A DNA stretch of 64,000 bases from Mizuhopecten yessoensis (Eukaryota): assembly GCF_002113885.1 (NCBI RefSeq), contig NW_018407085.1, forward strand, positions 58,766 to 122,765, in the 5' to 3' direction. The notes beneath the pieces are model-generated. The model was not told where the DNA came from, ran no database searches, and saw only the letters and a list, made by a program, of their open reading frames with translations. Positions 14,596 to 35,300 of this stretch are shown here, in pieces. A program made the translations under genes and the position numbers. How positions within the stretch are numbered: the first letter of the stretch is position 1; each line of letters begins with the position of its first letter.

Positions 14596-15103
14596 ACTTG
14601 AAGAAAGTACGCAGAATACTGCTAAGAACCCCCACCCCCCCACCCCACCACCCACATTAGACACTCCCTCAAAACATTGTTCGGAAATTCATCAGCTCAA
14701 AGGATCTACCACAGCGAAACAAATTGCTTTAGAAACAAGTTACAAAGTCAGATCAAATATAGCAGAATATATACTAAATTGAAAAATGCATAATCAATGA
14801 TTTGCTATTCTCACTGTTAAGAAACCATTTGTATTTCATACCATTTATATTTCCAGATCTAGCGGCGTTTAACACTAATTAGAAAAGTATTTATACCTTT
14901 TTGATTAGATACAGCACAGAATATGTAGTTAAAAAAAAAAACACATTAAAACATATGGTCCTGAAATGTGCTTTAATAATGAAAAACTATTCTCTGTGGT
15001 TACTTTTACCTCACAGAAAGGAACTTTTGTTGCTCTCTCAGTTGCAGATTTTATATCAGTATTTCGAAAAAATGAAAACTAATATGATTTATTTGCATTT
15101 CAG

Positions 15104-15508
15104 GTTATTAAAATGCTGGTTGCTATCATCATCATATTCATCGTTTGCTGGGCCCCTCTACTCATCAACAACGTCCTGGTGGGATTCAAACTGTTGCCTG
15201 ACCTTAATATCAACCACCACAAACATATTCGTGAGGCCCTCCACATCATGGCGTACTCAAATAGTTGTGTCAATCCAGTGGTCTATACGTTCATGTCCCG
15301 TAACTTCAAGGAAACGTTCAAACAAACCCTGTGTGGCTGTCTGCGCAAGCCCAGACGTTACAGGAAGAACACTTTGGAAGCGGGAACTTCACTCCAAAAT
15401 GGTAAAACATACAATACTTGTATTAACGGAGAGACCAGCGTGATTGTCAATAGAAACGCAGTCGAGTTGTCTAATTGTCGATACGGAACCAACGCCGAAT
15501 CCGTGTAA
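15104..15508 (+). CDS. Terminal coding exon (TM6-TM7 and C-tail) of a rhodopsin-family (class A) peptide GPCR
   Basis: Acceptor ttgcatttcag| at 15103; VIKMLVAIIIIFIVCWAP (CWxP), NSCVNPVVY (NPxxY), helix-8 MSRNFKETF and CGC; stop TAA; AATAAA at 15573. Upstream exons not identified. Confidence 0.93.
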   Translation, partial: VIKMLVAIIIIFIVCWAPLLINNVLVGFKLLPDLNINHHKHIREALHIMAYSNSCVNPVVYTFMSRNFKETFKQTLCGCLRKPRRYRKNTLEAGTSLQNGKTYNTCINGETSVIVNRNAVELSNCRYGTNAESV

Positions 15509-15792: not shown

Positions 15793-16305
15793 GTGTGAAC
15801 TTATGCTGTACTTTGGTACATGACATCATGGTGAACTCGTGTGGTACTGACTGTACAAAAGAACGGCAAAATGAAAGTTTGAGTAAACTATAAGGTACGC
15901 GATGAGGAACAACAATTTCTATTAGCTACCATGTATATGTTAGATATATCGGAGCAATGTCAAAACTACGATAGCGTGTGAACGAGACTACACTTACACG
16001 AAAGCTACATGTAGCATGGAATTCAAAAGAACACAACAGTTTATTTAAAAAAACATGATGAAATAAATAGTCATTGTTTCAGAGGAATGCGATGTTATTT
16101 GTTTTCTCATGTGATGTCCAGTAATTACATTATTAAAAATAATATTGTAGTAATGAAGAAGTTCTTACAAAAAAAAAGTATTGAATGGCGATGTGCCTTT
16201 TTTCTTTATTTCATGATCAGCGAGAAAATAAAGGGATTACTATACTTTATTTGATCTGTGAAAGGACATCAACATTAACATCCTCGACTGGTATTTTGCG
16301 AATGA

Positions 16306-16496
16306 AGTAGTGGTGTTTTACCGGTGCCTCCTCCACACATTTTGTGGAGGGTGTGGAGGGTGACCTTTTGACCTAGATATGCATGTATGACGCAATAGGG
16401 GAGGGAAAAACCCGTGGAATGTGTGGAGGTGATACCGGTTAAACAGACCTTAGACCTATATATGCATGTATGACGCAATAGGGGACGGGAACCCAT
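16306..16496 (+). repeat. Left TIR of the Polinton (ends beside an N at 16498); contains two internal direct repeats
   Basis: Reverse complement of 32174-32365 with few mismatches; gacctagatatgcatgtatgacgcaatagggga-like motif occurs twice. Confidence 0.95.
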
Positions 16497-18739
16497 ANGG
16501 TTGTATTTAAAAAACAAGTATTTTCAAAAATGTAATAAAAAAAAATGTGGAGTGATTGAATGTTTTTTTCGTCAATACCTTAGTACATAGGACAGGCTAA
16601 GCTTTAAATACATGTGATTCAAACTCTGTAATCATATTGGTGTAAGGAATGAAATTAAGTTTGTCAAAGTATACAACCTTCCAACCTATACTGTTAAAGG
16701 CATAACGATGTTTAACAAAAGTAAAACTTTAAAACCAAGAAATATACACACAACATTTAGCATTCATAGACAAGATATGCATAGTAAGAGGTAGTTTTTG
16801 AGTATTTAAAAAACAAGTATTGTCAAAAAACTAAAAACCAAGATTTGGAACGGTTAAACTTTTTTCATAAATTTGCATAAAATGTTTTAAAATAAAACTT
16901 TACAAACTTTTTTTTCATCAATTTGCATAAAATGTTTTAAAATAAAACTTTACAAACTTTTTGATGATTCGACTAGAAATTTACATAAAAGCAATAAATG
17001 GTTTAAGGAATAAAGATAGACCAACCAAATTAAATAAATTCCAAATATAAATCTTTCTCAAGTTATGTTTGTAAAAACTTAACAATGTTAGATAAAAACA
17101 ATTACAAGACTTTTATAATCAAGAAATATGTACACAACATTTTGTAGCATAAACAGACTTACACAGTGTGAGGTAGATTATGGGAATGAGTTCTAAAAAG
17201 TGTTTTATCATTTAGTTATCATAAAATGTTTCAAAATTTAACTTTAAACACAAGTATAGTGGATTAAGTACATGGGATGCATTATACAATGATTTGAAAT
17301 AAAACTTTTGATAAATAGATAGTTGATTCAAGTACATAGTGTTCACTCAGCTTTTACTACAAATAAACAACATCTGTTATACCTCACTGAAACATCAATA
17401 GATCCAGTCTACTGAATGTAACCTTTGTCAAACAAAAATTCTAAAGATGTCTAAACTCCTAGATTTCAATATAGCCTAAGACTAAGTCTAGTACAATGTC
17501 TATTCATACCATAGTCAGAACATTTTAACGACATGGGAGTAGGCCTTCCGCGATTTTTAAGGTAATCATTGTGGTTGTTTGCTGTGTAGATATTACAAGG
17601 TACACCATTGCGATAATGAGAAGCTGATCAAGGAGGTTGGTCGTACGACTGGCATGAAATAAAAACACGAACACATAAGCGAATTAGTGAGGATATTAAA
17701 AGATCTTTGGAATGAAAAACAATTCCCCTATGACGATTCAAGGTACACCATTGCGATAATGAGAAGCTGATCAAGGGGCGTTGATATTTCTTGATAATTC
17801 AGGATGAAAAATCATATCGAGGAGAAAGCCTATGTTTTGTTATGTTATGTTATGTAACGTTGAGGGATAACACCAGATTGGAAGGAAATGTCTTTATTTA
17901 ACAATATGTGGACTTTCATACTAACAGTAGGTGATGTAAAGATGGCGATGAGTTAAAATGAACTCGTAAGGTCTCATAGGTATCTAAACACCCTAACAAA
18001 GAGTCGACATTTGGTGTATATATATGGAGACTACACAAATGGCTCAAGGGACTATTAATCGCATAGTCAACGACAAAATCCTTCTGACAAACATACCACA
18101 CAGTAAATTGTTGTCTAGGTACTAAGCAACTCTTCCCTTCAAGAAGATAGGCATGATATGTAAGAATGGGAGGAGGGATAAAACGAAATTAGAGGGAATA
18201 GTTTTACTTAGAAATGTGTTTCCTTCTTTGGTATATATAGTCATTTAACTACGTCAGGTAATTAAGTTACCTGATCTTATACACAACAGCCACCATACAC
18301 CCACAGGTCACTACACAAGTCAATCCCCCACCAATCCAAACAACAAGATAAGTACATTCTATATACATCAAAGCTAGGATTTCCATCTCTACCTACAGTA
18401 CTGATAAATTATTAGTTCTCTGGAAGAGTCAACACTTAAACCGTCTCAGCCTGTCTGAGACAATTTCTCATTTTCGTCGTACAAGTCCAATCAAATGATT
18501 GGAACAATTTCTTTTTTGATTTCAAATAATATAAAAACTTCAAGAGACCCAGTTCAGTTGACTTTTTTATACAAAGTAACCTACAACATTTGTCTGATTT
18601 CAAGATGCCTTAAATGATCTAACTGAAATAATAGCTTTGCATAAGTCAAGTGGAATAGTTGCCAGTCTTGTACTGTCTATATTGCAAGTAAAAAGGTCAA
18701 CACAATTTTTGTAAACGTGTATGGAACTTTATAATAATA

Positions 18740-19720
18740 AAAAAAACACAGTATTTGTAAAACAATTTCAATCAATAAACGATATGGAAAAAGGTTTTTA
18801 CAGTGTGTGACAAGTTTGTTTTAGTATTCATGAAGATTTACAACAACGAAAGTCTTTTCGAGCTAACCCTAACCCTAACCCTAACAGGTATGAGTTAAAT
18901 TAAAGTATTTTGTTAAAGAAATTGACACAAAAGTACCTTGACAAACAACTTTTCATTAGAGATGTTATTCAAAAGTATACTTATTTTTAAATTAAACCTC
19001 TGACAGATGTAAAATAGTTTTAAATGCACAACATTTATAAAACAATTTAAATTAGGAAACGTTATGTAAACAGGTTTTTGCATAGTATGTGACAGGCTGT
19101 TTTAGTATTTATGAAGATTTACAACAACGGAAGTCTTTTCAAGTTAAAATTTTAGCAGGAACGAGTTAAATTAAAGTGTTTTGTTAAAGTAATTGACACA
19201 AAAGTATGATGACGGACATTTTATAACATATTTTTATTCAAAAGTATACCTGCTTTCAAATAAAACCTCTGACAGATGTGAGCTAGTTAAAAATTCACAG
19301 CATTTGTAAAAACCATTTTAATCAGAAAACTTAACGAAAATTGATTTTTACATAGTATGTGACAGTTTGTATTAGTTTTTATGAAAATTTACAACAACGA
19401 AAGTCTTTTCAAGTTAAATTATTCACAGGTATGAATTAAATTAAAGTATTTTGTTAACGAAATTGACGCAAAATTATTTTGACACACTTTTCATATCATA
19501 TTTTATGCAAAAATGTACCTATTTTTAAATAAAATCTCTAACAGATGTGAAAAAGTTTAAAATTCTCAGCATTTGTAAAACCATTTTAATCAACGTCGAG
19601 GATTTACAAAATTTTCAAGTTACCCTTTCAACAGGTATGAGTTAAATTAAAGTATTTGGTTAAAGAAATTGACACAAAATTATCTTGACAAACAACTTTT
19701 CATAAGATATGTGAAAACAG
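18740..19720. repeat. ~270-280-bp degenerate tandem repeat (about 3.5 copies) in the Polinton non-coding arm
   Basis: gaagatttacaacaacgaaagtcttttc...ttaaattaaagtattttgttaaagaaattgacac recurs at ~18832, ~19113, ~19383 and partly at ~19600. Confidence 0.85.
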
Positions 19721-20632
19721 TGAACACCAACAACAAATATAAGATACAAGATACATCAAAATCGATTTGACTTTTGTCATATTCCCATCTCTAACCAGAA
19801 CACTGATAACTTCTAAGTTTACAAACAAAATCTGTCAACATGTTAGGTGTTAGCATAAAAATGGAAACAACATATACCATTTATTTAACGATTGTTAGAA
19901 TCCAACAATTGAAAAAGAGTTTCAAAAGAAAATAATGCTTTGTTCTTACACTTTTTCTCGGAGTAGTACAGATACAACAGTAAAGTAAGTAAATTTGGTT
20001 ACTAAACGAATGTGATAAAGTCTCCGTTAGAATACATATGTAAATAGATGTATACACTTCTCTGTATTGAGATATCTATAGAAACAAACAAAAGTTTCCT
20101 ATTTGAATCAATATGTGTTAATAAAATAAAATAATCTTTAAAAAGGGGAAAAATAAAAAATTAGCATTTGACAAAGTGTATGACAAAGAAAAGTTCTAAA
20201 TACGCTGTGATCGAAATTTACGCTACAATTTAGCTAATTGATATTTAACTACTTTAACAAATGGATGTTTTTGTTGATACCTTTCAAAAGTATAATTGCT
20301 TTCGGCTCATTTTATTTGTTTACCTGATATGGCTACTTTTATGACGTTAGTACTGAACATGTATATTAGTATAAAATGCAAATAATTGTCGGTTGCAGAT
20401 CTTATGGGGTTGGGTTTTTTTTAATCGTAAAATATTCTTAAGTGTTCGATGCTGGTGATAAAATACCTAATGAGACAAAAAAGAATCCTATGCCGTAGAG
20501 ATGGTTAACCATTAAAACCGAGAACAAGTTACTTACTCATCCATTGCATTTGAGTTGACAGAATGGAATACTCACTAGTCTACAGGCGGATACCAGAGTA
20601 CTATATAGAAAACTCAAGGTACGAAGTATCAA

Positions 20633-20872
20633 ATGGAAGCTCTCGAGAAAATTGCAAAATTCATGCTGAATGGCTTGCTCAACATCTTGCAACATGATTT
20701 TGAGACATTTAGAAGACATCTGACTATGCTAAGACAAGTCATTTCTCCGGCTATATCTTTAACAAGAAAACGAAATTGTCTTTTGAGGCATCATAGTTTA
20801 CTGCCTAGATTATTAAGGGAGTATTATCTCAATCAAACGACCATTCTTGAAATTCGAAACGCAGACGAATAG
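20633..20872 (+). CDS. Small Polinton ORF resembling the conserved basic family ALxEIAxNxLxG...RHxxxLR...SLxRKR
   Basis: EALEKIAKFMLNGLLNIL...RRHLTMLRQVISPAISLTRKRNCL; family recalled from group-1 Polintons; convergent with PolB. Confidence 0.45.
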   Translation: MEALEKIAKFMLNGLLNILQHDFETFRRHLTMLRQVISPAISLTRKRNCLLRHHSLLPRLLREYYLNQTTILEIRNADE

Positions 20873-21335
20873 ATTCGTGTATAACATTTACATTCTATCT
20901 TCGAGTCAATACCACACCGAAAGATTGTACGGACCCATCTTTGGGAGGATGCGATGCGTGGTTGCCAATGATCTTTTTGAGGATTAAGAATAATCAGAAA
21001 TTGTTCCTGAAGTTGAACTAACAGAATATTGTTTGGAAAACGAGGAGAACAGGGTGCCATCCTCTGGCATACCGTAAAATGTTGTAAGAGCGTAAGTCAC
21101 TGGTGCAGACTTGAAAATCTCGTAAACTTGACCTGCTACACATCAGATAGTATCCCTTCATACAACTATATATTTACAAGAAAAAAAAAGAAAAAAAAGA
21201 AAAAAGTTACAAACTAAATTTTATTTTGCAACCATACAATAAAGTATACTTCTCTAAAAATGTACAATAAATAAGTAAAATGCTTGTATTTTCGACTTTT
21301 CGACAAGTATGACTTTGTAATCATTAAAATTGTAT

Positions 21336-24321
21336 TCAATGTATATCGTTTTTTATTTTATAATGACCATGTGCCCACGTTTCACCATTTGGTGTTACGT
21401 GGCGTTTGTCGTCAAAACTACAGAGGCCGGCTTTTTTCTGATGGTGTATACGTGCAAGTCATGTCTGTCACTTCTGATGGAATTCATATCACACATTATC
21501 GTTTTAGATTTAAACAGACATTCTAGATACATGTCGTGACGTAAATCATGCACGATGGTACATTTATTGATACCCTTAGCTATCTGTTTTGACTTAAGGT
21601 CAGAGCTGTTATCGTAAGCATAGGAATACATTTTAGGTCTCAATCCGAGAAACTCTTGTAAAATCTTCCCACCTAATTCGTCTTTAAACTTTCCCGGTAT
21701 TTTTTTGTTTGTGACGTCATAGATTGGATGATTGGTAGGATAATTGGATAGATCGAACAGATGTTAGTCTTCATGTAGTGTTTCGTACAGGTCTGAAACA
21801 TCCGATATTTCATACATCAAACTGTCAGTGTCAGTCAATAACAGACGTATGTTCTGGTATTTAGATAGCACGTGGTTGTAGTGGAAATCGTACATGATAC
21901 ATTTAGAGAGATCCAAAATACACTGACCGACATATACAGGTTTGTCGAGTATCAGTACGTTCTCCATGGTTTTACCAAAGACAGAGTTATTCATTTAATT
22001 TAAAGAAATCTTTTTCGAATTCGGAAGATGTTTCCCTTCTATTTTGACTGTTAAAATCAATGTAAGACTTCAACCACGTATACTGTCTAAACTGTTAAAC
22101 TCGGTGAATTTTTGTCAGTTTTATTCCTAACTCTAAGTACAGTTGTAAGTTTCTGTAATGACATATATATTTCGTCTTGTTTTCGAGCGAGGGTACGAGT
22201 TTAGGGGTGGCAACGCGTCCCCACAGTTTGCTGTCGGTATGTTTGGGACTGGGGTGTAATTCTTTCCATAATTCTTTGCTATGAGGGGATAACATTGCAT
22301 CGGGAATGACTTTAGTTTCCGGAGCGAGCGGATAGTCCGAATGGAGATTGTGTAGTTTTGACGGGTATTCTAGATCTACTTCTAAGACGTAACCCGTATC
22401 ACTATCTATAGGTATGTTTTGAACATCAAAATGTTCCACATTGTCAACCCACTGGACACGCCACCCCGTACCCCGCTCTCAAAAAACAGATAGATATATG
22501 AATCAGTTAGTAATTCTAAACTAACCCCGGTCATTTTGAGTGCAGCACTTCATGCAAGTCCATGACTCGTATAAAAATGAGCCGGATCTAACTCGTAATA
22601 GTTCATGCACATGGTTCTAAAATTTTCAAACACATCTGCTAGGAGAAGAACGTCGGTCTTCAAATAGAGATCATGATATTCTCCTAAATTCCTAATGTTT
22701 AGTGTATTCCAAACACTCTGCGCATGCTCATAATCTGTTTTGCTAATGTTTGATTTGCTCAGTTGACTGGTACAGGCTGACTTTGATGGTAAAGATGTTT
22801 CGTCAAATCTGTCTACACTGTCTACATACTCGTATGGGTAAACACATAAAGACTACACATGTGACATTTTTTGCTAGTTTGAAACTTCCACTCATTTTCT
22901 GGAGACATGACTTAAGGTTCTACATGTTTTAAAATGTCTTTGATTTCTTTTTCTTCTTCCAATATGTGTTCCAAAAAAGTTTTACTCACGTTTGGTCCGC
23001 GATAAATGTCGGGGGGTTTTGTATACTTTTCGTCTACGCTAACGACCTGATAACCAAACCCACAAGGTTCGAATTTTGTACTTCGAGTCGTACTCGATTG
23101 TTTTGGATTGGGTAGACATGTATCCATTCTCTGAGCGAACGTTTCAAAATCAGCATAGATGACAAATGGTACTTTTAACTGTTTAGCAAAACTGACAAAT
23201 TCTAATATGTCTTCACCTTCATCTGGAAGTTCCACATGTTTAGGATCGTGTTTGGAACAGTATTGAATGCGATTGTCTTATAAGTCATTTCTAGTAAACC
23301 CCTGAAGACAATAATGACAAAAATAAGTCTTATGTTGTGTTGTTTTAGTTCAAGATAAAAACTTATCAAGGTTCCTAATGAGACAACAATGACTCTTCCC
23401 ACCTTCTTTTAAATACAATAAATTGACATGATGACGCACTTGCCGTATTTTTGTGACATACATGGGAAATATTTCCTTATCCTCGTATCCAAACACATTT
23501 ACAGAAATGTCATTTTGTTTTTCAAACTTTTCTAATTGCAACATTGTTACGGTATAAACATTCCCAGTCATATCCAGTTCCTGTTCATAAGACATGAAGT
23601 TTGTCACTCGTTCTTGAACCTGATGATTGGGATGGAGAGACGCCAGGACAGACCCTAAGAACACTTTTCGTCTTTGTTGATAACGTTGATGAGATGAGAA
23701 AATTGAAACGTAGCCGGTGTTGGTAAGTAGGACGAACCACTTAAAGGTGAGTAGTTGGTAAAAATATATAGCTTTTGCTTCGAAAATGTGGATAGGATTG
23801 TTGTTTGTTTCCTTCTTTATCCTCCTTCTCCAGTTCTACTTGAATGCAGATGCACCACTTAATGCCGTGTAAAGAATGACACTGCTCTGTAATATGTTTC
23901 ACTACCTCCTCCCGCGTACTGCTAAAGAAAGTTAGTAAATCAGCATTGTCACCATCATCAGGGGAAACAGATCTCACATTGGCCGAGCCATTCAAGCTGC
24001 TTTCATCAGAAAACTGATGCATAGACCCTGGTGACTGTACGGGAGACAGTACATGAGAAGGTCCAGATATGGGAGGCAATGTGGACATGGGAATGGTTTC
24101 TCGTGAGCTGCCAAATGTCTCTTGAAATTGTCTAATCTTCTAATACGTTTATTACAAACGTAGAATTGGTAGTCCTCAGAGTCGGCCAATCGTACCTTTT
24201 TAGGAGGTGGTTGGTTTTCTTTGTTCTCTCCGAGTGCCTTTTTTAGCTTTCGTAATCATTCCGCTACAACATCGTCGGGGAAGTCTCGACATAGCTGCTC
24301 TATAGATGGTAGTTCGGCCAT
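21336..24321 (-). pseudogene. Protein-primed family B DNA polymerase (pPolB), fragmented
   Basis: Across frames: N-terminal C2H2-like finger (VCNK...FKRHLAAHEKPFPCPHC), FEKQNDISVNVFG, ExoI YADFE, VYPYEY, YLKTDVLLLADVFENFR, GVRGG, GYVLEVDLEYP, NNSVFGKTMENV, TDTDS, GKFKDE, LRPKMYS, KGI and terminal DDKR...GHY, stop at 21336; many stops, frameshifts and deletions. Confidence 0.95.
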
Positions 24322-24533
24322 GGCAGCCGATTACACTATGAGCTGATGTTATCGAAAGCTGTAGTTATATACACCGTAGAGGGAATGGTGTAATGTTTGA
24401 AGAGGTTATATATAGGCATGCTGCAATTGTGTGGACAGCTCTTATATCCACATAGCATGATGGGCATCTATACATTGTGTCTATTTATAGATGTGATGTA
24501 AAGTTGAAGGAAAATTTAGATCTTAAATGATAA

Positions 24534-24815
24534 TCATTTACGCTTGACGGATTTGTGTAAATTCTTCAGAAAACATTCCGGTGTATCTTCTACTGCTAAC
24601 TTCCCTCCCTTCTGTTGCTTATCCGGTCTGATTTCTCCATCCTCATCAGTTTTTTGTTGGTCTGTTTGATTTATTTCTTTAGTGTCGGTAGATTTTAGAT
24701 TGTGATTTGTATGTTCTTCGTTTTGTGTCTGTTTTTCGTTTTCATCAGAGGTGTTATCATCTTCGATTAATCTGCCATATCTAGTCTTTGTTATCAAGAC
24801 GAGTTATCTTGCCAT
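24534..24815 (-). pseudogene. Polinton small ORF (MAR*LVLITKTRYGRL..., charged low-complexity middle) with a premature stop at codon 4
   Basis: ATG at 24815 is in frame with ORF 24534-24797; N-terminus resembles recalled MAxKxVLV...YxxL Polinton ORFs. Confidence 0.45.
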
Positions 24816-24823
24816 TGTTGATA

Positions 24824-25071
24824 GGTGTTGATAAATATTGGTAAAACTCAAAGTAAAGCTGGGAATCTCTTTGGTGTTATATTTTCAGCTAACACTTTTC
24901 TGTTTAGATACAGTCTTTTTATCCGCATCAATCAGACATCGGTATGTTATCCATGACTGTATTTTATATGATTTCTGTTAATAATTGTAATTGTTCTCTA
25001 GTAAGCGTGTTTATGATGAGCGTCTGCTGATGTCGAGGTGCAGAAAGCATAAAGTCGAGAAAATATTTCAT
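24824..25071 (-). pseudogene. Degraded Polinton small basic protein (MKYFLDFMLSAPRHQQTLIINTLTREQLQLLTEII*NTVMDNIPMS)
   Basis: ATG overlaps the ATPase stop (ATGA); pattern QLxxLxEIxxNxxxxNIP; internal stops; absent from the ORF track; 3' end approximate. Confidence 0.5.
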
Positions 25072-25751
25072 TTTTTTGGTTCATAGACGATTGGATCCTC
25101 TCCGGGCAATATCCTGGTGCGAAGTGGGTGAAGTTCTGTCGGACCATCCACAATATTCAACGATGGGCCGTGTGGACTGACGTCGACAAAAAGATATCCA
25201 TATCTTTTAGAAACGGCAGAAAGGTAACTCTGTCTAAAATATTCTAGCCGTTTGGGAAACATTTGTCTTCCCAATGTCTCGATTTGTGCCTGATCTCTAT
25301 AATTTCTAAACAGGATAAAGTAATGAGCGTTTAAACTTAAAGTGCGCATGACCTGCCCCTTCTGAAATACGTTCTGTACTAAAAATATGACCGTCACATT
25401 TTGTGACCCTATGCAAAACATTTTCATGAGGTGTACGGAATTAGATCCTTCTATCAAACAGTCGTCTAGTACGATTATCTTGTGTTTATCTGTAACAGAA
25501 GTCCATTCTTCAAACTGTGTTTCGTCTAAGATCCCTTTAACGAAGGTAATTTCTTTGATATTACTTTTAAGTTCATCAAACATAGGTTGCCAAGTATCGT
25601 AACAGATCATAATCTTAGCCGTAGGCTGACTAAACAAACCATCGGCATGCTCTAATATTTGTTTCATCAGAAATGTTTTACCACTTCCAGAGCTACCTGC
25701 TAACTGTATCGTGGCAGGGCAGACAATGGGAACCAGACTTGTCTGTGACAT
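25068..25751 (-). CDS. FtsK/A32-like genome-packaging ATPase
   Basis: Walker A GSSGSGKT, Walker B IIVLDD, VQNVF, RTLSLNAHYFILFRNYRD, YGYLFVD; open 227 aa. Confidence 0.93.
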   Translation of the reverse strand: MSQTSLVPIVCPATIQLAGSSGSGKTFLMKQILEHADGLFSQPTAKIMICYDTWQPMFDELKSNIKEITFVKGILDETQFEEWTSVTDKHKIIVLDDCLIEGSNSVHLMKMFCIGSQNVTVIFLVQNVFQKGQVMRTLSLNAHYFILFRNYRDQAQIETLGRQMFPKRLEYFRQSYLSAVSKRYGYLFVDVSPHGPSLNIVDGPTELHPLRTRILPGEDPIVYEPKK

Positions 25752-25789
25752 GATTCAAAATGAAAACAGGTAAGTGAAAGTTCGATGTT

Positions 25790-26203
25790 TTATTGGTATT
25801 CTTGACAACATGATTGGTACCCATCACCAGTTTGAAAACAAAACGGAAAGGACTTATAGATATAATCATATACAAATTCATCGTTATGCGTATAATCATC
25901 ACTAATTACATTAACTATAGACTTGAGAGATACATTTCTACATCTATTAAGCAAATAAAATAAACAACATTGACCACACACGTTAGATCTAACACTCTGT
26001 AATCGTGTTACATTAAACGCTGTACATTTTGAAAGTGAAAAGTATTTTGGTGGATGGCAATAACTGTCAAAAAAATCCTTTTTTGTTGATGATTCCATAA
26101 AATAGGCCACCCAATGTCGTCCCGGTTGATGGCTTTCGTCGGTATTGACAATAAATCCGGCGGGAAATTGTTCTATATGTATTTCGATCATGTGCATATA
26201 CAC
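25790..26203 (-). CDS. Adenain-like cysteine (maturation) protease; N-terminus probably frameshifted
   Basis: IVNTDESHQPGRHWVA (His), FFDSY (Asp), RLQS (Gln), VCGQ (Cys). Confidence 0.92.
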   Translation of the reverse strand: MYMHMIEIHIEQFPAGFIVNTDESHQPGRHWVAYFMESSTKKDFFDSYCHPPKYFSLSKCTAFNVTRLQSVRSNVCGQCCLFYLLNRCRNVSLKSIVNVISDDYTHNDEFVYDYIYKSFPFCFQTGDGYQSCCQEYQ

Positions 26204-27752
26204 CTATGTTAAAGGGACATCACGGTGAAGTAACTTTATTTTTTGTCTTTTTTTCAAATACTACATAAACATATCAAGTGAGACTCCTTATGGAAAATAC
26301 CGTTCGGATTTGGCTGAAATAGATTCATAAAAATGATTAAATCTAAGAAAATCATCGGTATTTCTACCTGTCTGACCAACGGATTTCCCTCTACTAGCGC
26401 ATGCGCATAGCACACCATTTCTTTGTAAACAAAATGACTGACCATGTGAAGTAAGCGAAAGAAAAGTGTTGTACCATGTCAGCTACGAAACGAAAAGTTG
26501 GCAAATGGTCAAAGATAGCGCAAGGAGTACGGAATCATTATTGCAGGTGGGCAGTATTCAAAGGAGAAAATAACTGCCGTAGCAGTTAGTACGGTGCATG
26601 TATTCTTTCGGATAGCCGGTTAAGCTGAAATGGAATCGACAGAAATGCTAGCGCTGTTTATGTTATGAATAAATATCTAAAACTATTAAGCTCGCTAGTA
26701 TCTTTGTCTGAGTTTGAACACAGATGAACTTAGTTTAATATGTTAATGGGCATGTATTGGAGAGAGTTTACTTTGTGTTTCTATAATTATACAGCGGTTT
26801 ATGCGAGAGGAAGGGATAAGTGACTGGTTAGTTTGATTTTTCCATGAGGCCCTCCAAGGGATAACTGTTGTGATGGCCCTCGGCGTATTTTCTGGGTCAC
26901 CGAGATACGTGTTATCGAAGTCCGTGGATTTACATAATTTATAATATTACCGGGTTCAATAAAATGGTATGATTTAATTATATTGCTGAATTAAACGATT
27001 ATTTTTGTTTTTACATGCAAGATTTAAATTAGTACTAATATGAATACCCGGCCTCCTCTGCCCCGGCAATATATAAAAAAAAATCAGAAAGGTTTGTCCC
27101 TTGGTGTAGGGAAGGTGTTTAGCCCCGTACCATCTGTACCGGCCACATTCCGGTACTAAATTCAATATATATTTAAATATATCTACTTTATGTTTATGCC
27201 TATTATCATTGTTGACATTTAATTGTAAATGTATGACGGGAGAAGGCTGTGATAAATTGTAAAAACTTGTGCCCCATCCCTTGTTTAATTTTATTGGCAA
27301 CAAATTTATGTTTAAAGCTAAATAAATTTAAATTCTGAACATTGGCAAGTGTGCAATTAACTTCTAATGATGAATAATTACTGTTCAATAAGTTTGAATA
27401 CGGACTTAGAAATCATATAACTTGGTTTCATAGTGCGGTAAGAAGTTGCAGTTGCCTGACGGCCCCTCTCTGGGGGCCCCTTTGGAAACCGTTTCATCTC
27501 GCTCGCACCACTTGTGTTTACTGCCTAGTCAGGTGACGTTATCGGCGCTATTCTTAGCAGGGCTTTCCCGAACAATTCAAGTGGTCAAACTGGACATTTT
27601 GAACGGACTATGAATATGGGGATAGCGTGGTAACATAGGTGGAAGTGCATACAATACATACATTCATTAAAAAAACGCCTTTTCACGTTATGTCCCTTTA
27701 AGCTCTTTCATGATAAAATCACAATTAATAACGCAACGAAGTTGATTGGTAT

Positions 27753-29031
27753 TCATGGCTTTAAAATGTCTCTTGCAGCGTTGATTTCAAAATAGCCAGG
27801 GTACTCAGCATAAACGATGCAGCTGATGGTTTTAGACAGTGTACTTCCAAATGTGACTTCCAGTCTGACGTTTCCTTGTTTTAATAAGGTAAGATATTGA
27901 TTTCCTTCAAAAATAGGCTCCAAATTAAATGTGTATAACGAATAACCATTTGAAATGTTCTGCCTATGAATATCTAATCCACAATCGTATAACCATCTTC
28001 CTGTTGTTTTAAACATGTTCCTTAGGACTGGAATGGTGGTCTGACTGGTGGTGGCTTCGTAATCTGTTTTTATGATATTACCTCCTACGGGTATTCCGTC
28101 CACATAGAGACCAATGGATGTTACATTAAATAGTTTGAAGAACCATGGGTTTTGATTGTATGCTCCCGTGATGGCGGTTGCATCGACAAACCCAATGGTT
28201 ACAAAATTTGGTCTCATTCCTTGAAATATGTTATCATATGTAAAACTGGTTCCTCCGGCGGCACACTTTCTGTAAATGGATATTTTGCAGTAGTTGTATG
28301 ACGGCAGGGTTCACTTTGGCTTTAGCGATGCGTAGTCTAATATCTTCAAACTCGATCTTGTAGTTGGGGGTTTGTTCGCCGGAAAGTAAGCAAAACTCTG
28401 GCTTTGATCTGTACATCTTTACATTTACGTTTACTTGATTGAGTAAATATCTATCCATTCTAAATAGATCGTGAAATATGGGGCCTTCCAAATCGACAAC
28501 TTTGCAACCTTCGAATAATTCGGCCCTTTCTAGTAAAGCTAGATTGTTACCCGTTCTCACATCTGTATCATTCATCTCTCCATCATTATTTTCATGCCAT
28601 AACTGTGTTGTTAACTGTGATGTTTTAGCATCATTTCCATATTTCAATAATGTTTGAATGTATGCCTTGCATGCATAGTTAGCAGTTGTAGATATCACGG
28701 TTCTTCCTTGAAGTGTGGCATCCACTTGTGAAAACAGAGCAGGTAACAAAAATTGGACATGTCCAACGTCTTCAGTAGAGCTTATGGCAGCTCCATCCGC
28801 CCTTGTTATCTTTATTTTAGCGTAAACTAGCGAATTTTTCATGTCGATGTATTCCATATTATTTTGACAGGAAACGACGAATTTTATGGGCGAATCTCCA
28901 GCCATTTGTGATATCGGTAGTACGTCTTGATAGTATATGTTTTCAACGGCTGTCTGTGTGGGTGGTAATTCAAAAAGCTCCAGTTGTGAAGGTTGAGCTT
29001 CTCTGAAAAAGACTTTGTTTATTGTAGCCAT
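27753..29031 (-). pseudogene. Major capsid protein (hexon-like double jelly roll), split by frameshifts near 28230-28290
   Basis: SQLELFELPPTQTAVE, LFSQVD, DLFRMDRYLLNQV; shifted-frame AKYPF and DNIFQGMRP lead into ORF 27753-28217 (NPWFFK, GYSLYTFNL, GNVRLEVTF, CIVYAEY). Confidence 0.9.
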
Positions 29032-29477
29032 GATGATAGTAAGTGATTCTTAGTAGATTTCTTACGTTTCTGTGTAGACTTCCGCTTTTGTGTAGGCTTA
29101 CGTTTCTGTGTGAGCTTCCGCTTTTGTATAGGTGTACGTCTCTTAATCTGTTTTCTTGTCTTAGATCTGACTTTTCTTGATGGTTTTCTCTGAGAGGTCT
29201 GTACTCTTTGACGTTTCCTGCTAGAATGTGACGGTGTCAATTTTCTCTTCCTTTTTAATTCTGACTTGACTTGGTTTCGTATCGGTAAGGCTTTCTCTCC
29301 GTCACTGCTATACTTGTCGATGGGAATGATGAATTCAGCCGTGTTGCCTGATATTGCCCCTCCCCTTTGTTTTACATCTTGCATATCTGTATAAGGATTG
29401 ATCTTACCATCCGTAACCTTTCGATAATATTGTAACCACTTACCCACAATGGGCACGTATAAGTTAGAAACATTCAT
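29019..29477 (-). CDS. Basic Lys/Arg-rich putative virion core (DNA-condensing) protein
   Basis: Lies between penton and hexon; LYVP...KWLQYY N-terminus; QRGG; C-terminal half very K/R-rich with TQKRK repeats. Confidence 0.65.
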   Translation of the reverse strand: MNVSNLYVPIVGKWLQYYRKVTDGKINPYTDMQDVKQRGGAISGNTAEFIIPIDKYSSDGEKALPIRNQVKSELKRKRKLTPSHSSRKRQRVQTSQRKPSRKVRSKTRKQIKRRTPIQKRKLTQKRKPTQKRKSTQKRKKSTKNHLLSSWLQ

Positions 29478-29899
29478 CTGTAAAATGGGTAGGCTTTAAA
29501 CTGAAGTGTAATCGTTGATGGTTTCTTCAAGAATGAAGCAACGTTACCGTCACTGTCTTTTATAGATATTTCTATATCTCTGATTTCTGACTTCGCTACA
29601 GGAACGTACTGAGGAGTGTCAAGTGTTTGTCTCCAGCTTGCAACTTTCTGAGCTTTCACCATTCGAAGTAGATTCTGCTTCTCACCGTCGATTATGGATT
29701 CTCCAACAGTATCGCAATGTATGTATAAATTTTCTCTCGACTTTGTATTACTTGTCGTTACACATATGTCAACGAGTGCTACATTCCATGTACCATTCAG
29801 AGTAATGGGTGATTTTAGTTGACAGCGAAAATGGTATGGTTTGTTGTCGGGGAAGTAGTCGAGATTCTTAATACTGTTAATGATCACGTAGTGTGCCAT
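29474..29899 (-). CDS. Minor capsid protein (penton-like single jelly roll)
   Basis: YVIINS...YFPDNKPYHFRCQL...LNGTWNVALVDI, LYIHCD, LLRMV, YVPV...IEISIKD, ITLQFK; intact 141 aa. Confidence 0.85.
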   Translation of the reverse strand: MAHYVIINSIKNLDYFPDNKPYHFRCQLKSPITLNGTWNVALVDICVTTSNTKSRENLYIHCDTVGESIIDGEKQNLLRMVKAQKVASWRQTLDTPQYVPVAKSEIRDIEISIKDSDGNVASFLKKPSTITLQFKAYPFYR

Positions 29900-30717
29900 G
29901 CTAGCTTTCTGTCAATGTCTTCGAATTGGACAAACCACTCGATCTGACCTCCTCTCCTACGTTTGCGTATTTTTTTCTCTATAAACCTTAATGTTTTTTC
30001 ATCTTTTTCAACTCGTTGTAATTCTGACTGATACAAATTTCCTTTGATGGTATCATCTAAAAAGTCTATCAATTGATATAGTGGTATTCCCTGCATTAGA
30101 ACTCTTTTGTGTATCTTGAATATCTCTGAAGACCATTGTTGTTGATAGGCTCGCTTAAACAGCTGTTTCGTGTGTGAAATACGAACTAAATTCCTATCTT
30201 GAATTTTGTTTTGTGTAGTAAAATAATGAATGTCTTTATCAAGACACCAGCGTTTGAACCAGCGGTTATTATATTCTTTGCCTAAGTCTGAATGAATTTT
30301 CTTTGGGATTCTACCTCTCTCGACTACTTTCTTTAAGGCTTCTAATACCTCTTTTGCTGTTTTTGTCATAATAGGTTCGACCCAGAGAAAGCGGCTGAAC
30401 ACATCGATGACCATCAACAAATATCTCACACCTGGGTTATGTTTGGCAAATGACGTCATGTCCAATAAATCGGTGTCATATTGCTCGAACGGTTCTCAAA
30501 CTTCTACACGTGCACGCTTGAATGAACGTTTTACAGGTTTTCGCAGACTGTAGTCGTCAAGACTTTGAATGTATCGTCTGATCTTATATAAACCCGGAGA
30601 GTTAAATCCATGTGATTTCAGTATTTGATGTACTTTTGTTGGACTTAAAAATGTTCCACCGTTATTAAAATTATAATAAATGTCATCCACTCTCTGTTTT
30701 TCTTGCTGCGTCAACAT
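29884..30717 (-). pseudogene. Retroviral-type (rve) integrase with truncated chromodomain-like end
   Basis: Two in-frame ORFs separated by TGA at 30496-30498; YDTDLLDM, YLLMVIDVFSRF, IHSDLGKEY; segment bearing the catalytic Glu missing after FTTQN; WSSEIFKI, GNLYQSELQ, IEKKIRKR...FVQF. Confidence 0.93.
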
Positions 30718-31113
30718 TTTCTGTAAAGAAATATAAATGTGACGTTCAGAAAATGTTAAAATTTAAAAGTATCAATAGAAGCATGCTCGTTTACACACAA
30801 TTTAATTATTTAAATATACATACTGATAAAATGTTATTAAAATTATAATAAATAAGACAAGTTGTACAATCAGTTAACATTTACAATACATTGGTTAACG
30901 AATACATACTTAAGCTGTTGTCTTAAAAGTCTCCACATAAGTGAACAAAAAAGATAAAGGTTACGGTTTTATAAAGCGACTCTCTACACGAGACATAGAT
31001 TGAATCATTTCGTCAATCTTTTTTCTTCTCCATAGTTTTTTCAGTTCAGTATTTCTCCATTCTAAGCTAGACACATTTGTAACATATTTGTTGACAGGGC
31101 TTCTTCAAAATAT

Positions 31114-31332
31114 CTATTCTATTCTGTCTTCACTATCAAGCATGACACAGTCATGTCCTTGCTGGTTAGCTTGACCCTCCACACATCCTGCACATACAAA
31201 CAATTTCGATATGACGTCTTTCACGCTTGATGCATAAGCTAGACATAGTAAGTTTTTCACAATCTTCTTATAATCTTTTTCTTCAATGTGGTTTCTCATA
31301 TATGAATGAAGTCTCTCCTCAAATATATCCAT
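31114..31332 (-). CDS. Small Cys/His protein with CxGCxxxxxNQxxHxC motif; probably continues past the stop through frameshifts
   Basis: CAGCVEGQANQQGHDC; similar motifs recalled from Polinton accessory ORFs. Confidence 0.5.
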   Translation of the reverse strand: MDIFEERLHSYMRNHIEEKDYKKIVKNLLCLAYASSVKDVISKLFVCAGCVEGQANQQGHDCVMLDSEDRIE

Positions 31333-31359
31333 TATAAATTAGCACTATACTGTGTAACC

Positions 31360-31655
31360 TTAGACGTGTAGGGGTATAACCATTTGTAAATACACACAAT
31401 CTGTCGACCACTTTTCAAGTTCGATTTCGACGGAATCGTAGGCTATCCAGGACCTTAACTGTACTCCACACATGAAACAGGTGACTTTATCGCTATGTCT
31501 TGAATAAAAAAAATCCGTTCGTTTGGAGTCTGTCGTATTTGTTGGGGCCAGTCCTTAAACGTTTGTAATCGATCCTCACATTGAATCATGGACTGGTATG
31601 CTGGTCGAATGTGATATGAAGTATGACGGATACAATCTGTTGTAATATCTGACAT
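31360..31655 (-). pseudogene. Single BIR-domain (IAP-like) protein, frameshifted
   Basis: First frame EDRLQTFKDWP; after a shift near 31510, FFYSRHSDKVTCFMCGVQLRSWIAYDSVEIELEKWSTDCVYL, matching BIR consensus with the Zn-ligand His replaced by Leu; stop at 31360-31362. Confidence 0.85.
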
Positions 31656-32173
31656 GTTAATGTATCAAATCACAAACACCTTGTAAACTTTCCGATAGAA
31701 ACGGTATCTTTTAAAATAGTCTCCTGCTATTTGTATACTCTTCCCGTCTTCTTTTTTCACGATGATTTCTTGTGTAATTCCAAGACGACAGTCTTCCTTA
31801 CTCTGTGATATGCTTGTCAGCGTAATATCTTCCTTGATTATATGGTTGATAATCTATTGTGCCATTTGTGGAGACTCTAAATGTTTACCGTATATACACA
31901 TAAGGTTGCATCACTGCTATTTCAACTCACTGTGTATAGAAGTGTGACATAATCCCTCCACACATCTTTTTTTTCCTGGACTGTGTATAGAAGCCTCTTC
32001 ATATGTATAAGGTTATTTTTAAATCTATGTCGCTCTCGCCGTGGACATGTTCGGTCTTGCATGATCCCCTCCACAATTACGGTAAAAACATTTAACCTCC
32101 ACATATATTATGTGATATAATCCTTCACACATTCTTTCCTATTGTGTTGCACATTAATCCCTCCACACATTCC

Positions 32174-32365
32174 ATGGGTTCCCGTCCCCTATTGCGTCAT
32201 ACATGCATATCTAGGTCAAAGGTCTGTTTTACCGGTATCACCTCCACACATTCCACGGGATTTTCCCTCCCCTATTGTGTCATACATGCATACCTAGGTC
32301 AAAAGGTCACCCTCCACACCCCTCCACAAAATGTGTGGAGGAGGCACCGGTAAAACACCACTACT
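32174..32365 (-). repeat. Right TIR of the Polinton
   Basis: Reverse complement of 16306-16496; ends ...cactact then the TSD gaatga. Confidence 0.95.
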
Positions 32366-35300
32366 GAATGACATTATGATATGCAAACCCCCATGGATCT
32401 GTCAGAAGCAGACTATAATGTTTAAAGAGTGTAGGTATAGGTCAGACTTGACCTTGACATACATATATGTAGCAGCTATATTTAAAATTACATTTTATTG
32501 AATTTAAGTGAATAAAACTGGATGAGGGCTTAAAGTCTCTCTATAGGTCCATATGAACAAATGATTAAAAAATAGTTTATAGGAGTGTCAATAACAGCAT
32601 TATTAAACAGTCTTATTGTGTTTTTCACGTATCATAGATTGTTTCTTTAAAATATTCATCAATTAATATTTCACAACGCCCATAATTGTTTGAACAATAA
32701 ACACACGTACAGGTAGATTGTTCAACACATCTACTACCTTAAATGCGTTTCTCCTTAACTGCGTGTTACATCGGTGTTTTTAAACATTTTGTGGGTGTGA
32801 CCTTGATTGAGTTCCTTCATTTATATTAAACGTTAATAGATTGGAAGTGCCTCTGTCATCAAATAATTTGTTAATTATTTCAAAAACGGTTATCCCTTTC
32901 ATCCTGCGGTGCTTCAATATTGGATTTGTAGTACTTTCAGACGCTCTCCGTAGGAAAGTTCGTTCCCTCTTTGAATCATCAAACGATGGTACGACAATAG
33001 CATGTCCTTTATGGCATTCTGTCTTTGTTTATACTCATATTGACACACGAAACTATTTAAAAGAATCAGTACACGTGCCTGATTCCCAAGGCTCTTGGGT
33101 TTGTTCTCGGTGAGTTGGTTCCGTCGGTTTCTCCCTGTTTCTGTTGATAGAACTTCGTCATGCTTTATCATTTGCTGTACGCCGGGGTTCACGCCTCAGA
33201 AATCGTGATCATTTTCAGAACACGACATGCGTGTTGTTTCGCTATCATGTCTGAGTTTCCCTTTGTCGGTGTGTTACGACCATTTGTTACAGTTGTGCCT
33301 GTGGTTCTAATGGACTATTCGTACTAAAAACCTTTTACGTTTTAACCACTTTAACGGTGCTGTGAACAAATGACATGTGTGACAAAATGGCATTTTTAGA
33401 AAACGCATTCTTCTCCGGATCACGTGATTGCACTTTGTTTTATTCGGATTGGATTGTGTTAATGATGTTTTCCGTTTTGTTTCATTCTCCTTAGTTTCCG
33501 CTTTTGCTTCGAACGTTACATGTTACTTTGTCCTTCCTGTTGTGTCGACAGTAGTGATGATTTTCATTATTATTCATCATATTTCACTAAATAAAACGTA
33601 GATCTATAAACTCTAGACACGCATGAATGAAAATTTCAAAGGAATGTCGATGATGAAATACCAAACCAAGGTAACACTAAAACAAGAGTGAAAGTATTAC
33701 TGACGAACCAAGTCCACAATATAACGACGCTCCGTAACGGCACCGTTTCTTATACCGCACGTGGCACCCGTCAGGACGTCTCTGGTCAAATCCGGAATTT
33801 AGATCAGCAGTGATGCTGGACACAGATAGAGTGCATATATGTTATAATGATATATCCTATACAAATCAGGGCATGATGATAAATGTATACACACTATAGC
33901 GTAGAGTAAAGCTTCACTTTAGAAGAGAGCAACGCTTGTTTCTTTAACACCGTATTCACTTATTGAACTTACTCAGTCAATAGGGCATAGACTGGCCCCA
34001 GTTTTACGAGCACGCCTTAATAGAACGAAACCCTACATTTCAAGCTTATCGATAGGAGAGCCTTGCTGAAGGAAAACGAAAATTAAAACCGTACAGAAAT
34101 CCTTTAAGTTGATGAACGCTCCTTAATCTAGGACATTAAATGATACTACGAAGGGAAGGAAAAGGTGATGATCGTTACATTTAAGTCGTAACGTTTGTCA
34201 GTCAGAGACTTTTGTAGTGAGTTTACATTTATCGTAAAACCGTAAGAAAATGCCATTGATTTTTGTCGTGGGGTTACACATATTGTAGACATATTGTAGC
34301 ATAAAGATCCTTAGCGAAGTGACCATTATTGTCAAACTAAGGTAAATATCAGGATAGCAAATAGCTAAGTTTGTTATATCTTTCAACTTCTCGAGGATAA
34401 TTCAGATGCGGGTAACACTCGAAATGTCTGTTAAAGACAAACCATCATCAGACTCGGTATACCTGAAGTGGAATCAAATGTTACAACCTTATACCACAAA
34501 GCTCCCTTTTGGCAGAGAAAAACGAATAACTTCTTAAACTATTGCGTAATTAAGGAAAAACCATGTTTATTTCAGGGCTTATACCGTTAATACGAAACTA
34601 AAACAAAAACGTGCACTTTGCATATTTCGCGAAACCGATTTATGCACTAAAGTGCACACTGTTTTCCTTCCTTTGGTATATACCAAATGACTTCAAAACA
34701 TTATTTATGTTTATTTTTTATGATTTTAGTTTGAAGATACAGACAAAATTTTATAGTTCATAGTTGATGATGAATATTTATTCATTTTCAATAAAAATAA
34801 AAATAAAAAAAGGTATGCACAAAACACAACATTACGGTTCAACTTTATCACTGAGTAACTTCAACCAATCAGAAATTAGAATTACAATCGTATAAATACT
34901 GCGCCAAACGATGCCTTATACAACGTCACTACTTTTTGTATTGTCTTTGTTTTCTAAGCTTTACAATATAACCTGAAAAAGTCCATCAATGGGCAAATAG
35001 CTAAAATGAAACTGTTATGCGATGACTTTAGGGTAATGGTGCAGTGTGCTTGTACAATCGACATGTCAGCAATATGGCTGATCAGTATGACGTCATGAAA
35101 CTCGAATATAGCAACTTCCAAGTACACTGGTCTGAGCTGCATATTAACTTTATATTTTTTCCTATATTAGCAATAAATGTGACCAAAAATAATAAAAGTC
35201 CTTTGCCGGTTTTTTTTTGAGATTCATGAAACCTAGCCTGTAGGATTCATTTTACCCCGACGTAGCCGATACCGAATCCAATAAACACTGACTTATCTCC

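Follow-up and report, generated by a model that had tools for sequence, protein, structure and literature searches.

A broken single-BIR gene in a decayed Polinton is one copy of an accessory gene carried by two related Polinton families

The stretch of Mizuhopecten yessoensis DNA analyzed here (64,000 nucleotides, hereafter the window) contains, near the right end of a Polinton, a short broken gene for a protein with one BIR domain. A single broken BIR gene is by itself ordinary. The question raised by this locus is whether the gene is a regular cargo of the element or a stray piece of host DNA and, if a cargo, what it might do. A preliminary description had read it as a captured anti-apoptosis gene, split by a frameshift and decayed after insertion, and as a possible vehicle for spreading BIR genes in the host genome.

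On the minus strand, the first frame runs from an ATG at 31655 through RLQTFKDWP, and the second contains FFYS...VTCFMCGVQLRSW...ELEKWSTDCVYL and ends with a stop at 31360-31362. Two naturally open sister proteins aligned across both frames by tblastn (one frame at 31655-31518, another at about 31521-31363; E 1e-43 and 2e-35), confirming the two-frame split. The 3′ piece alone matched PF00653 (E 2.4e-9, 38 bits versus a cut-off of 22.9), which establishes a single BIR gene; the Pfam scan of the 5′ piece alone gave no match, and an open sister scored 80 bits. No RING was present downstream of the window BIR, as had been stated. About ten bases are missing from the window copy near 31505-31520 relative to 25 of the 29 sister loci found. 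Its third zinc-ligand position holds Leu, which leaves the C-x2-C-x16-H-x6-C zinc set incomplete; Leu occurred there in none of the 29 sisters, of which 19 had His, three had another residue or none, and seven had no frame matching the motif. The missing bases and the loss of the His ligand bear out the proposed decay after insertion, and the window copy is a pseudogene. The preliminary description had asked for intact sister versions. A single open start-to-stop frame was present in only 3 of the 29 loci, and decay is therefore the rule among the sisters.

The gene starts about 520 bases inward of the right terminal inverted repeat of a decayed Polinton copy of 16,060 bases (about 16 kb, 16306-32365; Table 1). 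A 6-bp target-site duplication is a mark of Polintons, also called Mavericks, and one flanks this element. The two inverted repeats are identical at 185 of 191 aligned bases, and the left repeat may be longer than the interval given. The AGTAGT-type terminal motif is the commonest Polinton end according to the available part of PMC8097293. From the right end inward, the gene order is terminal repeat, 80-aa gene, BIR gene, 145-aa Cys/His gene and integrase. About 800 bases to the left of the insertion, the window contains a rhodopsin-type GPCR exon (15083-15508; 7tm_1, E 2.9e-10), and the left part of the element contains a tandem repeat of 270 bases in 3.2 copies (18733-19592) that is common to the sisters.

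Table 1. Positions in the window of the Polinton, its flanks and its genes
Feature	Position	Strand	Remarks
Left 6-bp target-site duplication copy	16300..16305	.	Hexamer GAATGA, identical at 32366-32371
Left terminal inverted repeat	16306..16496	+	Starts AGTAGT; N at 16498 adjoins; true length may be greater
Likely protein-primed DNA polymerase B gene	21395..24255	-	Broken, many pieces; from homology and motifs
Packaging-type ATPase	25068..25754	-	Itself weak P-loop matches only
Adenain-type cysteine protease	25790..26203	-	Peptidase_C5 E 0.014, short of cut-off
Likely major capsid protein gene	27753..29049	-	Two frames; named tentatively by its size and position
Likely minor capsid protein gene	29474..29911	-	Homologues in distant Polintons; name tentative
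Retroviral-type integrase	29884..30762	-	Two pieces; Pfam rve E 1.3e-13
Partner gene, 5′ piece	31114..31338	-	Directly downstream of BIR; about 145 aa in sisters; CxGC...QxxHxC motif
Broken single-BIR gene	31360..31655	-	About 100 aa in open sisters; split across two frames near 31505-31520; Leu at third zinc-ligand position
Upstream gene remnant	31665..31853	-	Conserved gene of about 80 aa; equal place in sisters; possibly PC4-like
Right terminal inverted repeat	32174..32365	-	Ends ACTACT
Right 6-bp target-site duplication copy	32366..32371	.	GAATGA

The pieces of the likely polymerase gene are homologous, at up to 59% identity, to a single long open frame in distant Polintons, and the frames in other copies measure 849-1410 aa. 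Comparison of this region with Pfam and PDB gave no polymerase match; it contains NSVFGKT and DTDS stretches, which we take to be polymerase motifs. The window ATPase matches an ORF of metagenome locus L161 (tblastn, 2e-24) that itself matches Pox_A32 (E 7e-7), and the window protease matches an ORF of metagenome contig L155 (9e-16) that matches Peptidase_C5 (E 6e-5). Through these homologues, which pass the respective cut-offs, the two window genes can be identified as the packaging ATPase and the adenain protease of the Polinton. The likely major capsid gene is 33-36% identical to an open frame of 434 aa in distant Polintons and had no match in Pfam or PDB; the library comparisons gave no match for the likely minor capsid gene either. 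Short Polinton-type units were also observed (L162-L165, contigs C3761 and C4717), which measure about 9.5-10 kb between inverted repeats of 1.1-1.4 kb and have open integrase, ATPase, capsid and protease frames; they showed no polymerase match, and six copies had an identical ATPase score.

The partner gene lies at an equal place in both of the BIR-carrying Polinton families defined below, and homologues are located 3′ of BIR genes in metagenome loci L156 (E 2e-10) and L157 (7e-8). It had no protein-family match. Atlas matches of 0.91-0.93 led to unnamed clusters with sub-threshold recognition and were set aside. For the upstream gene, resemblance to the PC4 ORF of L155 reached E values of 0.02-0.1 only, with no Pfam or Atlas match, and a PC4 identity is not claimed.

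Because the query that found the 29 sisters contained the BIR gene, this collection cannot test BIR absence, and the presence test was begun from the ATPase instead; 150 of 273 ATPase candidates were scored. Loci were divided by ATPase identity into family 1 (at least 75%), family 2 (about 50-70%) and distant Polintons (31-38%). Among the BIR matches listed, one was located within 12.5 kb of the ATPase at 18 of 22 family-1 loci and 34 of 49 family-2 loci. Of the four family-1 misses, two are truncated ahead of the BIR and two lie in the first 700 bases of contigs; the other 15 family-2 ATPase loci had no listed BIR. The ATPases of the two families are about 60% identical, and the BIR occupies an equal place in both. 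None of ten distant Polintons carried a BIR in the 20 kb examined, so that the gene is dispensable for life as a Polinton. These results answer the first part of our question and uphold the earlier reading of the gene as cargo: among the Polintons sampled, the BIR gene is a fixed accessory gene of two related families, located between the terminal repeat and the integrase.

The position of the gene is not constant in every copy. At 11 of 58 family-1 BIR matches the gene was at the left end of the element, joined to sequence matching the window from 17504 onward (L104, L106, L114, L125, L130, L138, L144, L147, L154, L030). A search of the window Polinton found no such left-end BIR copy. One internal stop is common to 10 of the 11 left-end copies, and therefore some lineages have spread with a dead BIR. 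Two loci (L144 and L070) are palindromic derivatives with one BIR per arm, with inverted arms that are 99% identical over 1.6 kb in one and 99.8% identical over at least 3.9 kb in the other.

To what extent does this lineage account for BIR sequence in the genome? From a PF00653 search, 150 of 392 BIR candidates were scored, with 1.5-2.5 kb examined per side and less at contig ends. A Polinton core gene was found within 2.6 kb of 55 matches, only the two accessory genes that flank the BIR beside 12, and neither beside 83. In a tree of the 119 full-length matches, 74 formed one clade (98/92), which included every full-length match with a Polinton neighbor. The 31 matches outside this tree (30 shorter than 54 aa and one spanning an intron) were assigned later by best match, and three short ones joined the Polinton clade. 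The Polinton lineage thus comprises 77 of 150 matches on 68 contigs, which is a share of scored matches and not of genes. Host BIRs divided by introns obtain lower scores and may be too few among the 150, and the second paralogue described below is outside the count.

Internal stops were present in 30 of the 77 Polinton-lineage matches versus 7 of the 73 others. RNA reads were mapped from about a fifth of each of four runs, at a likeness of at least 85%, so that reads of any family member could map, unstranded; sequencing-run shares below 0.25 were excluded as evidence. Depth over the window BIR was about 1-10 in all four runs and that over the capsid and integrase genes 0-2, and no expressing element was seen in the reads of the four runs. 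Given the frequent stops and low RNA coverage, most BIRs of the lineage are therefore dead copies and not new host genes. The proposed vehicle role thus holds in that the elements spread BIR sequence, and fails in that most of what they spread is dead. Positions 26400-27900 of the window had an RNA depth of about 10-130 in all four runs; many read ends there were loose, and most reads were less than 99% alike. This interval is likely a nested repeat inside the element.

We analyzed selection in 17 open BIR copies (136 pairs, of which 67 were saturated at synonymous sites). In bins of rising dS, dN/dS was 0.51, 0.25, 0.28, 0.14 and 0.12 (4, 13, 10, 15 and 27 pairs), declining from 0.51 at dS <0.15 to 0.12 at dS >1.5; the pairs are non-independent, the method was a simple count and the copies were open ones only. 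This trend is as expected if the lineages are selected while active and individual copies drift after insertion.

Residue positions in the groove of the Polinton BIR are given in what we take to be XIAP numbering. Among the 74 full-length BIRs of the Polinton clade, E/Q precedes the His ligand in 67, Trp follows three places past the His in 66, and the upstream Asp is present in 72. The zinc ligands were present in 67 (Cys), 71 (Cys), 71 (His) and 67 (Cys), so the family as a whole retains the four-ligand set that the window copy has lost. The accessible text of PMC8917759 gives E/Q76, H77, W/H80 and C84 as the marks of type II BIRs, and by these residues the Polinton family is of type II. When an open sister was compared with PDB, the BIRs of NAIP, XIAP (BIR2), cIAP and DIAP1 were matched (E 1e-30 to 1e-11), as was that of livin, and survivin was absent among the best 60 of 82 matches. 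The structure model of an open sister had a pLDDT of 66 and matched 32 viral IAPs in BFVD at E of 0.001 or less, some of them 87-101 aa in length. Open copies end a few residues past the BIR and have no RING.

In a wider tree, which included the 45 most Polinton-like of 514 multi-BIR domains and had 72 columns and many open forks, the Polinton BIRs formed a group (95/91) together with short proteins of other data sets that have a single BIR. This group includes annotated hypothetical proteins of the blood clam Tegillarca granosa (five near-identical sequences under seven accessions) and metagenome locus L156; none of the multi-BIR IAP domains of this genome in the tree joined it. The best host multi-BIR IAP domain is 40% identical to the Polinton BIR, versus 48-55% for the outside proteins. 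Since the nearest relatives are short BIRs elsewhere and not host multi-BIR IAPs, the capture is old; the captured-gene claim stands as to cargo status and is corrected as to age. A search of representative proteins returned mostly multi-BIR proteins, with one close single-BIR match among the 150 listed. IMG/VR viral contigs gave no match with one protein; with an alignment, 64 pattern matches were obtained, none of which was confirmed.

Of seven metagenome loci, L158 and L159 had no Polinton gene. L156 and L157 contain a BIR and the partner gene, and L160 and L161 contain a BIR with an ATPase and a polymerase-like or integrase-like piece. In L155 (166-1872), PC4, BIR and adenain protease genes adjoin. 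The L160 BIR does not belong to the Polinton clade, its branch lying where the tree is poorly resolved, and capture may therefore have occurred more than once. In L161 (3396-4172), a Polinton-like locus of another animal, a RING gene (Pfam E 2e-9) comes after the BIR gene as a unit of its own, so that an IAP is laid out in two genes. In the genome studied here, a cluster of seven single-exon BIR matches (six on contig C107 and one on C74535; L064-L068 and L135) is sister to the Polinton clade (94/94 in the first tree and 90/86 in the wider tree). These genes are in tandem, encode 89-93 aa, are without Polinton neighbors and have dN/dS of 0.19-0.44, and His and Arg replace their acidic groove residues. 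The cluster is possibly a host take-over, or the donor, of the Polinton BIR.

Family 2 carries another BIR-like gene two places downstream of the first (L060:2297-2587, L039:407-685, L095:1597-1884 and ten more loci). This second paralogue scores above the Pfam BIR cut-off over the initial 55 positions and is missing eight residues around the usual His ligand. All 13 aligned copies have an invariant C-x2-C-x15-C-x3-H, and dN/dS was 0.15-0.38. The structure model (pLDDT 51, with the C-terminal third below 50) is too poor to judge the zinc site.

What would the first BIR gene do for a Polinton? We consider it probable, at roughly 0.65, that the protein works as a decoy without a RING, which would occupy caspases or IAP antagonists and so delay the death of a cell hosting a replicating element. 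The presence and location of the gene, the selection on it and its residues come from the data, and binding and anti-apoptotic effect are inferred from what is known of the BIR family. The protein of about 100 aa would fold as one zinc-bound BIR, whose type II groove could hold the N-terminal IAP-binding motifs of processed caspases or IAP antagonists. With no RING or UBA it would not ubiquitylate its partners and would act by sequestering them, so that host-cell death would be delayed during replication of the element. Copies left behind by insertion would decay neutrally and give rise to many intronless, scattered and nearly silent BIR frames. The preliminary description also found the gene consistent with a true viral lifestyle; a BIR gene alone does not prove a viral, particle-forming life cycle.

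Other roles for a selected BIR gene have to be weighed against the decoy. Survivin binds histone H3 tails on mitotic chromatin and has a long C-terminal helix. The Polinton groove might likewise bind a ligand unrelated to death, such as histone H3 tails on mitotic chromatin, and aid replication or integration. A single BIR, the absence of a RING and an acidic groove fit such a role, as does the selection on the reordered-ligand paralogue, from which it appears that BIRs here can take other roles; in addition, intronless single-BIR oyster genes are filed as BIRC5-like in the part of PMC8917759 available. However, the PDB matches were to XIAP, cIAP, NAIP, livin and DIAP1 rather than survivin, again among the best 60 of 82, and the protein ends too soon after the BIR for the survivin helix. 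By its sequence the gene would not be assigned to survivin/BIRC5, and we regard a survivin-like role as unlikely. Rather less credible still is a dominant-negative or signaling decoy, acting on host IAP partners in innate immune signaling of the TRAF, TAB1 or RIPK type instead of blocking caspases directly: the best single-domain PDB matches do include XIAP BIR2 and cIAP BIR1 (best 60 of 82), and BIRs also serve NF-kB signaling, as noted in the text seen of PMC8917759, but the residue pattern is of type II and not type I.

Two further explanations would deny the element a functional gene of its own or the window copy its damage. A host IAP retrocopy that landed by chance and hitchhiked without function would be intronless, as the gene is, and the sister group of the lineage in this genome is the single-exon cluster on C107 and C74535, which has no Polinton neighbors. 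Against this, dN/dS is well below 1 up to saturation, the gene holds its place in two families whose ATPases have diverged to about 60% identity, conservation of the partner gene extends to other data sets, and the nearest relatives are outside this genome. With 150 of 392 BIR candidates scored, the nearest relative is not an intron-bearing host IAP, and evolution is not neutral. The dN/dS values and the conservation of the partner gene largely refute the retrocopy, which we consider very improbable. It is harder still to believe that the break in the window gene is an assembly error in a whole gene. The break coincides with an 8-base homopolymer, and the sisters differ in length at this point, but the window copy differs by about ten bases, a zinc ligand is changed as well, and the polymerase, capsid and integrase genes are broken too. 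The caspase or IAP-antagonist decoy remains our preferred reading.

A RING-less, intronless gene of this kind resembles genes that have been described in bivalves in other terms. The available text of Song et al. 2021 (PMC7831173) ascribes 42 intronless single-BIR IAPs of hard clam clade 1 to retroposition. According to the same text, IAP genes have an excess of DNA transposons in their surroundings, most retro-type copies are not transcribed, and the BIR+PC4 type is an innovation of clams and mussels; its main text does not contain the word Maverick. Like the Polinton BIRs, these clade 1 genes, as the accessible text presents them, have one exon and one BIR, are scattered and are mostly untranscribed, a likeness of gene organization. 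In 28 of 49 table rows of that article, they are mostly 348-456 bp, with the same 408-bp single exon in at least 11 genes, versus about 300 bp for Polinton BIR genes. As far as their available texts go, Song 2021 and Witkop 2022 both invoke retroposition for intronless bivalve IAP genes, an explanation given also in the portions consulted of PMC8917759 and PMC13159474; in the latter, a 2026 survey, dispersed duplication is often the largest class and, in the same portion, no vehicle is named. In the part seen of PMC8905726, two columns of a repeat table give Mavericks as 1.69% and 1.93%. Terms for apoptosis or BIR are absent from PMC11161782, and a preprint (10.1101/2024.03.25.586562) has one sentence on anti-apoptotic homologues. 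In the literature searched, mostly outside subscription journals, we found no paper tying Polintons to bivalve IAP counts.

We therefore put forward, at what we judge to be even odds, that a large part of the 'retroposed' intronless single-BIR bivalve IAPs (the 42 hard clam clade 1 genes) and the 'BIR plus PC4' type are Polinton accessory genes annotated as host genes, that a few (for example the C107 cluster) have perhaps been adopted by the host, and that a second BIR has been reordered to the ligand set of the family-2 paralogue. A gene predictor could fuse PC4 and BIR genes arranged as in L155 into the 'BIR + PC4' type of clams and mussels. Polintons may thus inflate published counts of apoptosis-inhibitor genes in shellfish. 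IAP expansion is a much-cited explanation of bivalve stress tolerance. With about half of the scored BIR matches in the Polinton lineage, a simple test is available for any genome: to look for integrase, ATPase, protease and terminal repeats beside intronless BIRs. A host-manipulation gene under purifying selection also suggests that active Polintons meet a cell-death response.

Among known systems, the closest are the adintoviruses, in which IAP and Bcl2 homologues were observed (Starrett et al. 2021, PMC8502044, section 3.2) and which, so far as that section describes them, share with the window Polinton an IAP-type accessory gene in an animal Polinton. In the text of Supplementary Fig. S2, two IAP labels directly precede the names 'Mytilus mussel' and 'Bivalve / Pinctada oyster', the link of label to map being inferred from the order of the text. 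In the parts of that article available to us, IAPs occupy one sentence and the map labels, and these parts do not count copies, test for selection, assign BIR types or draw a connection to host IAP counts. IAP-carrying Polintons are thus a kind already known, of which the window gene is a further case; what is new here is the genome-wide BIR count, the selection signal, the reordered-ligand paralogue and the lead on 'retroposed' bivalve IAPs. The BIR fold is also common to the viral IAPs of baculoviruses, entomopoxviruses, nudiviruses and Ostreid herpesvirus 1. A baculovirus IAP of the classic kind combines two BIRs with a RING, whereas the Polinton protein has one BIR and no RING and hence is not a RING-bearing IAP. 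ORF87 of OsHV-1 was found by profile, and both of its BIRs fall outside the Polinton clade. With the type II BIRs of cellular IAPs (XIAP BIR2/BIR3, cIAP BIR3 and DIAP1 BIR2) the Polinton family shares the E/Q-H-x-x-W-x-x-x-C pattern; unlike those of XIAP, cIAP and DIAP1, the Polinton BIR is stand-alone, intronless and mobile, and the copy in the window is without its His ligand.
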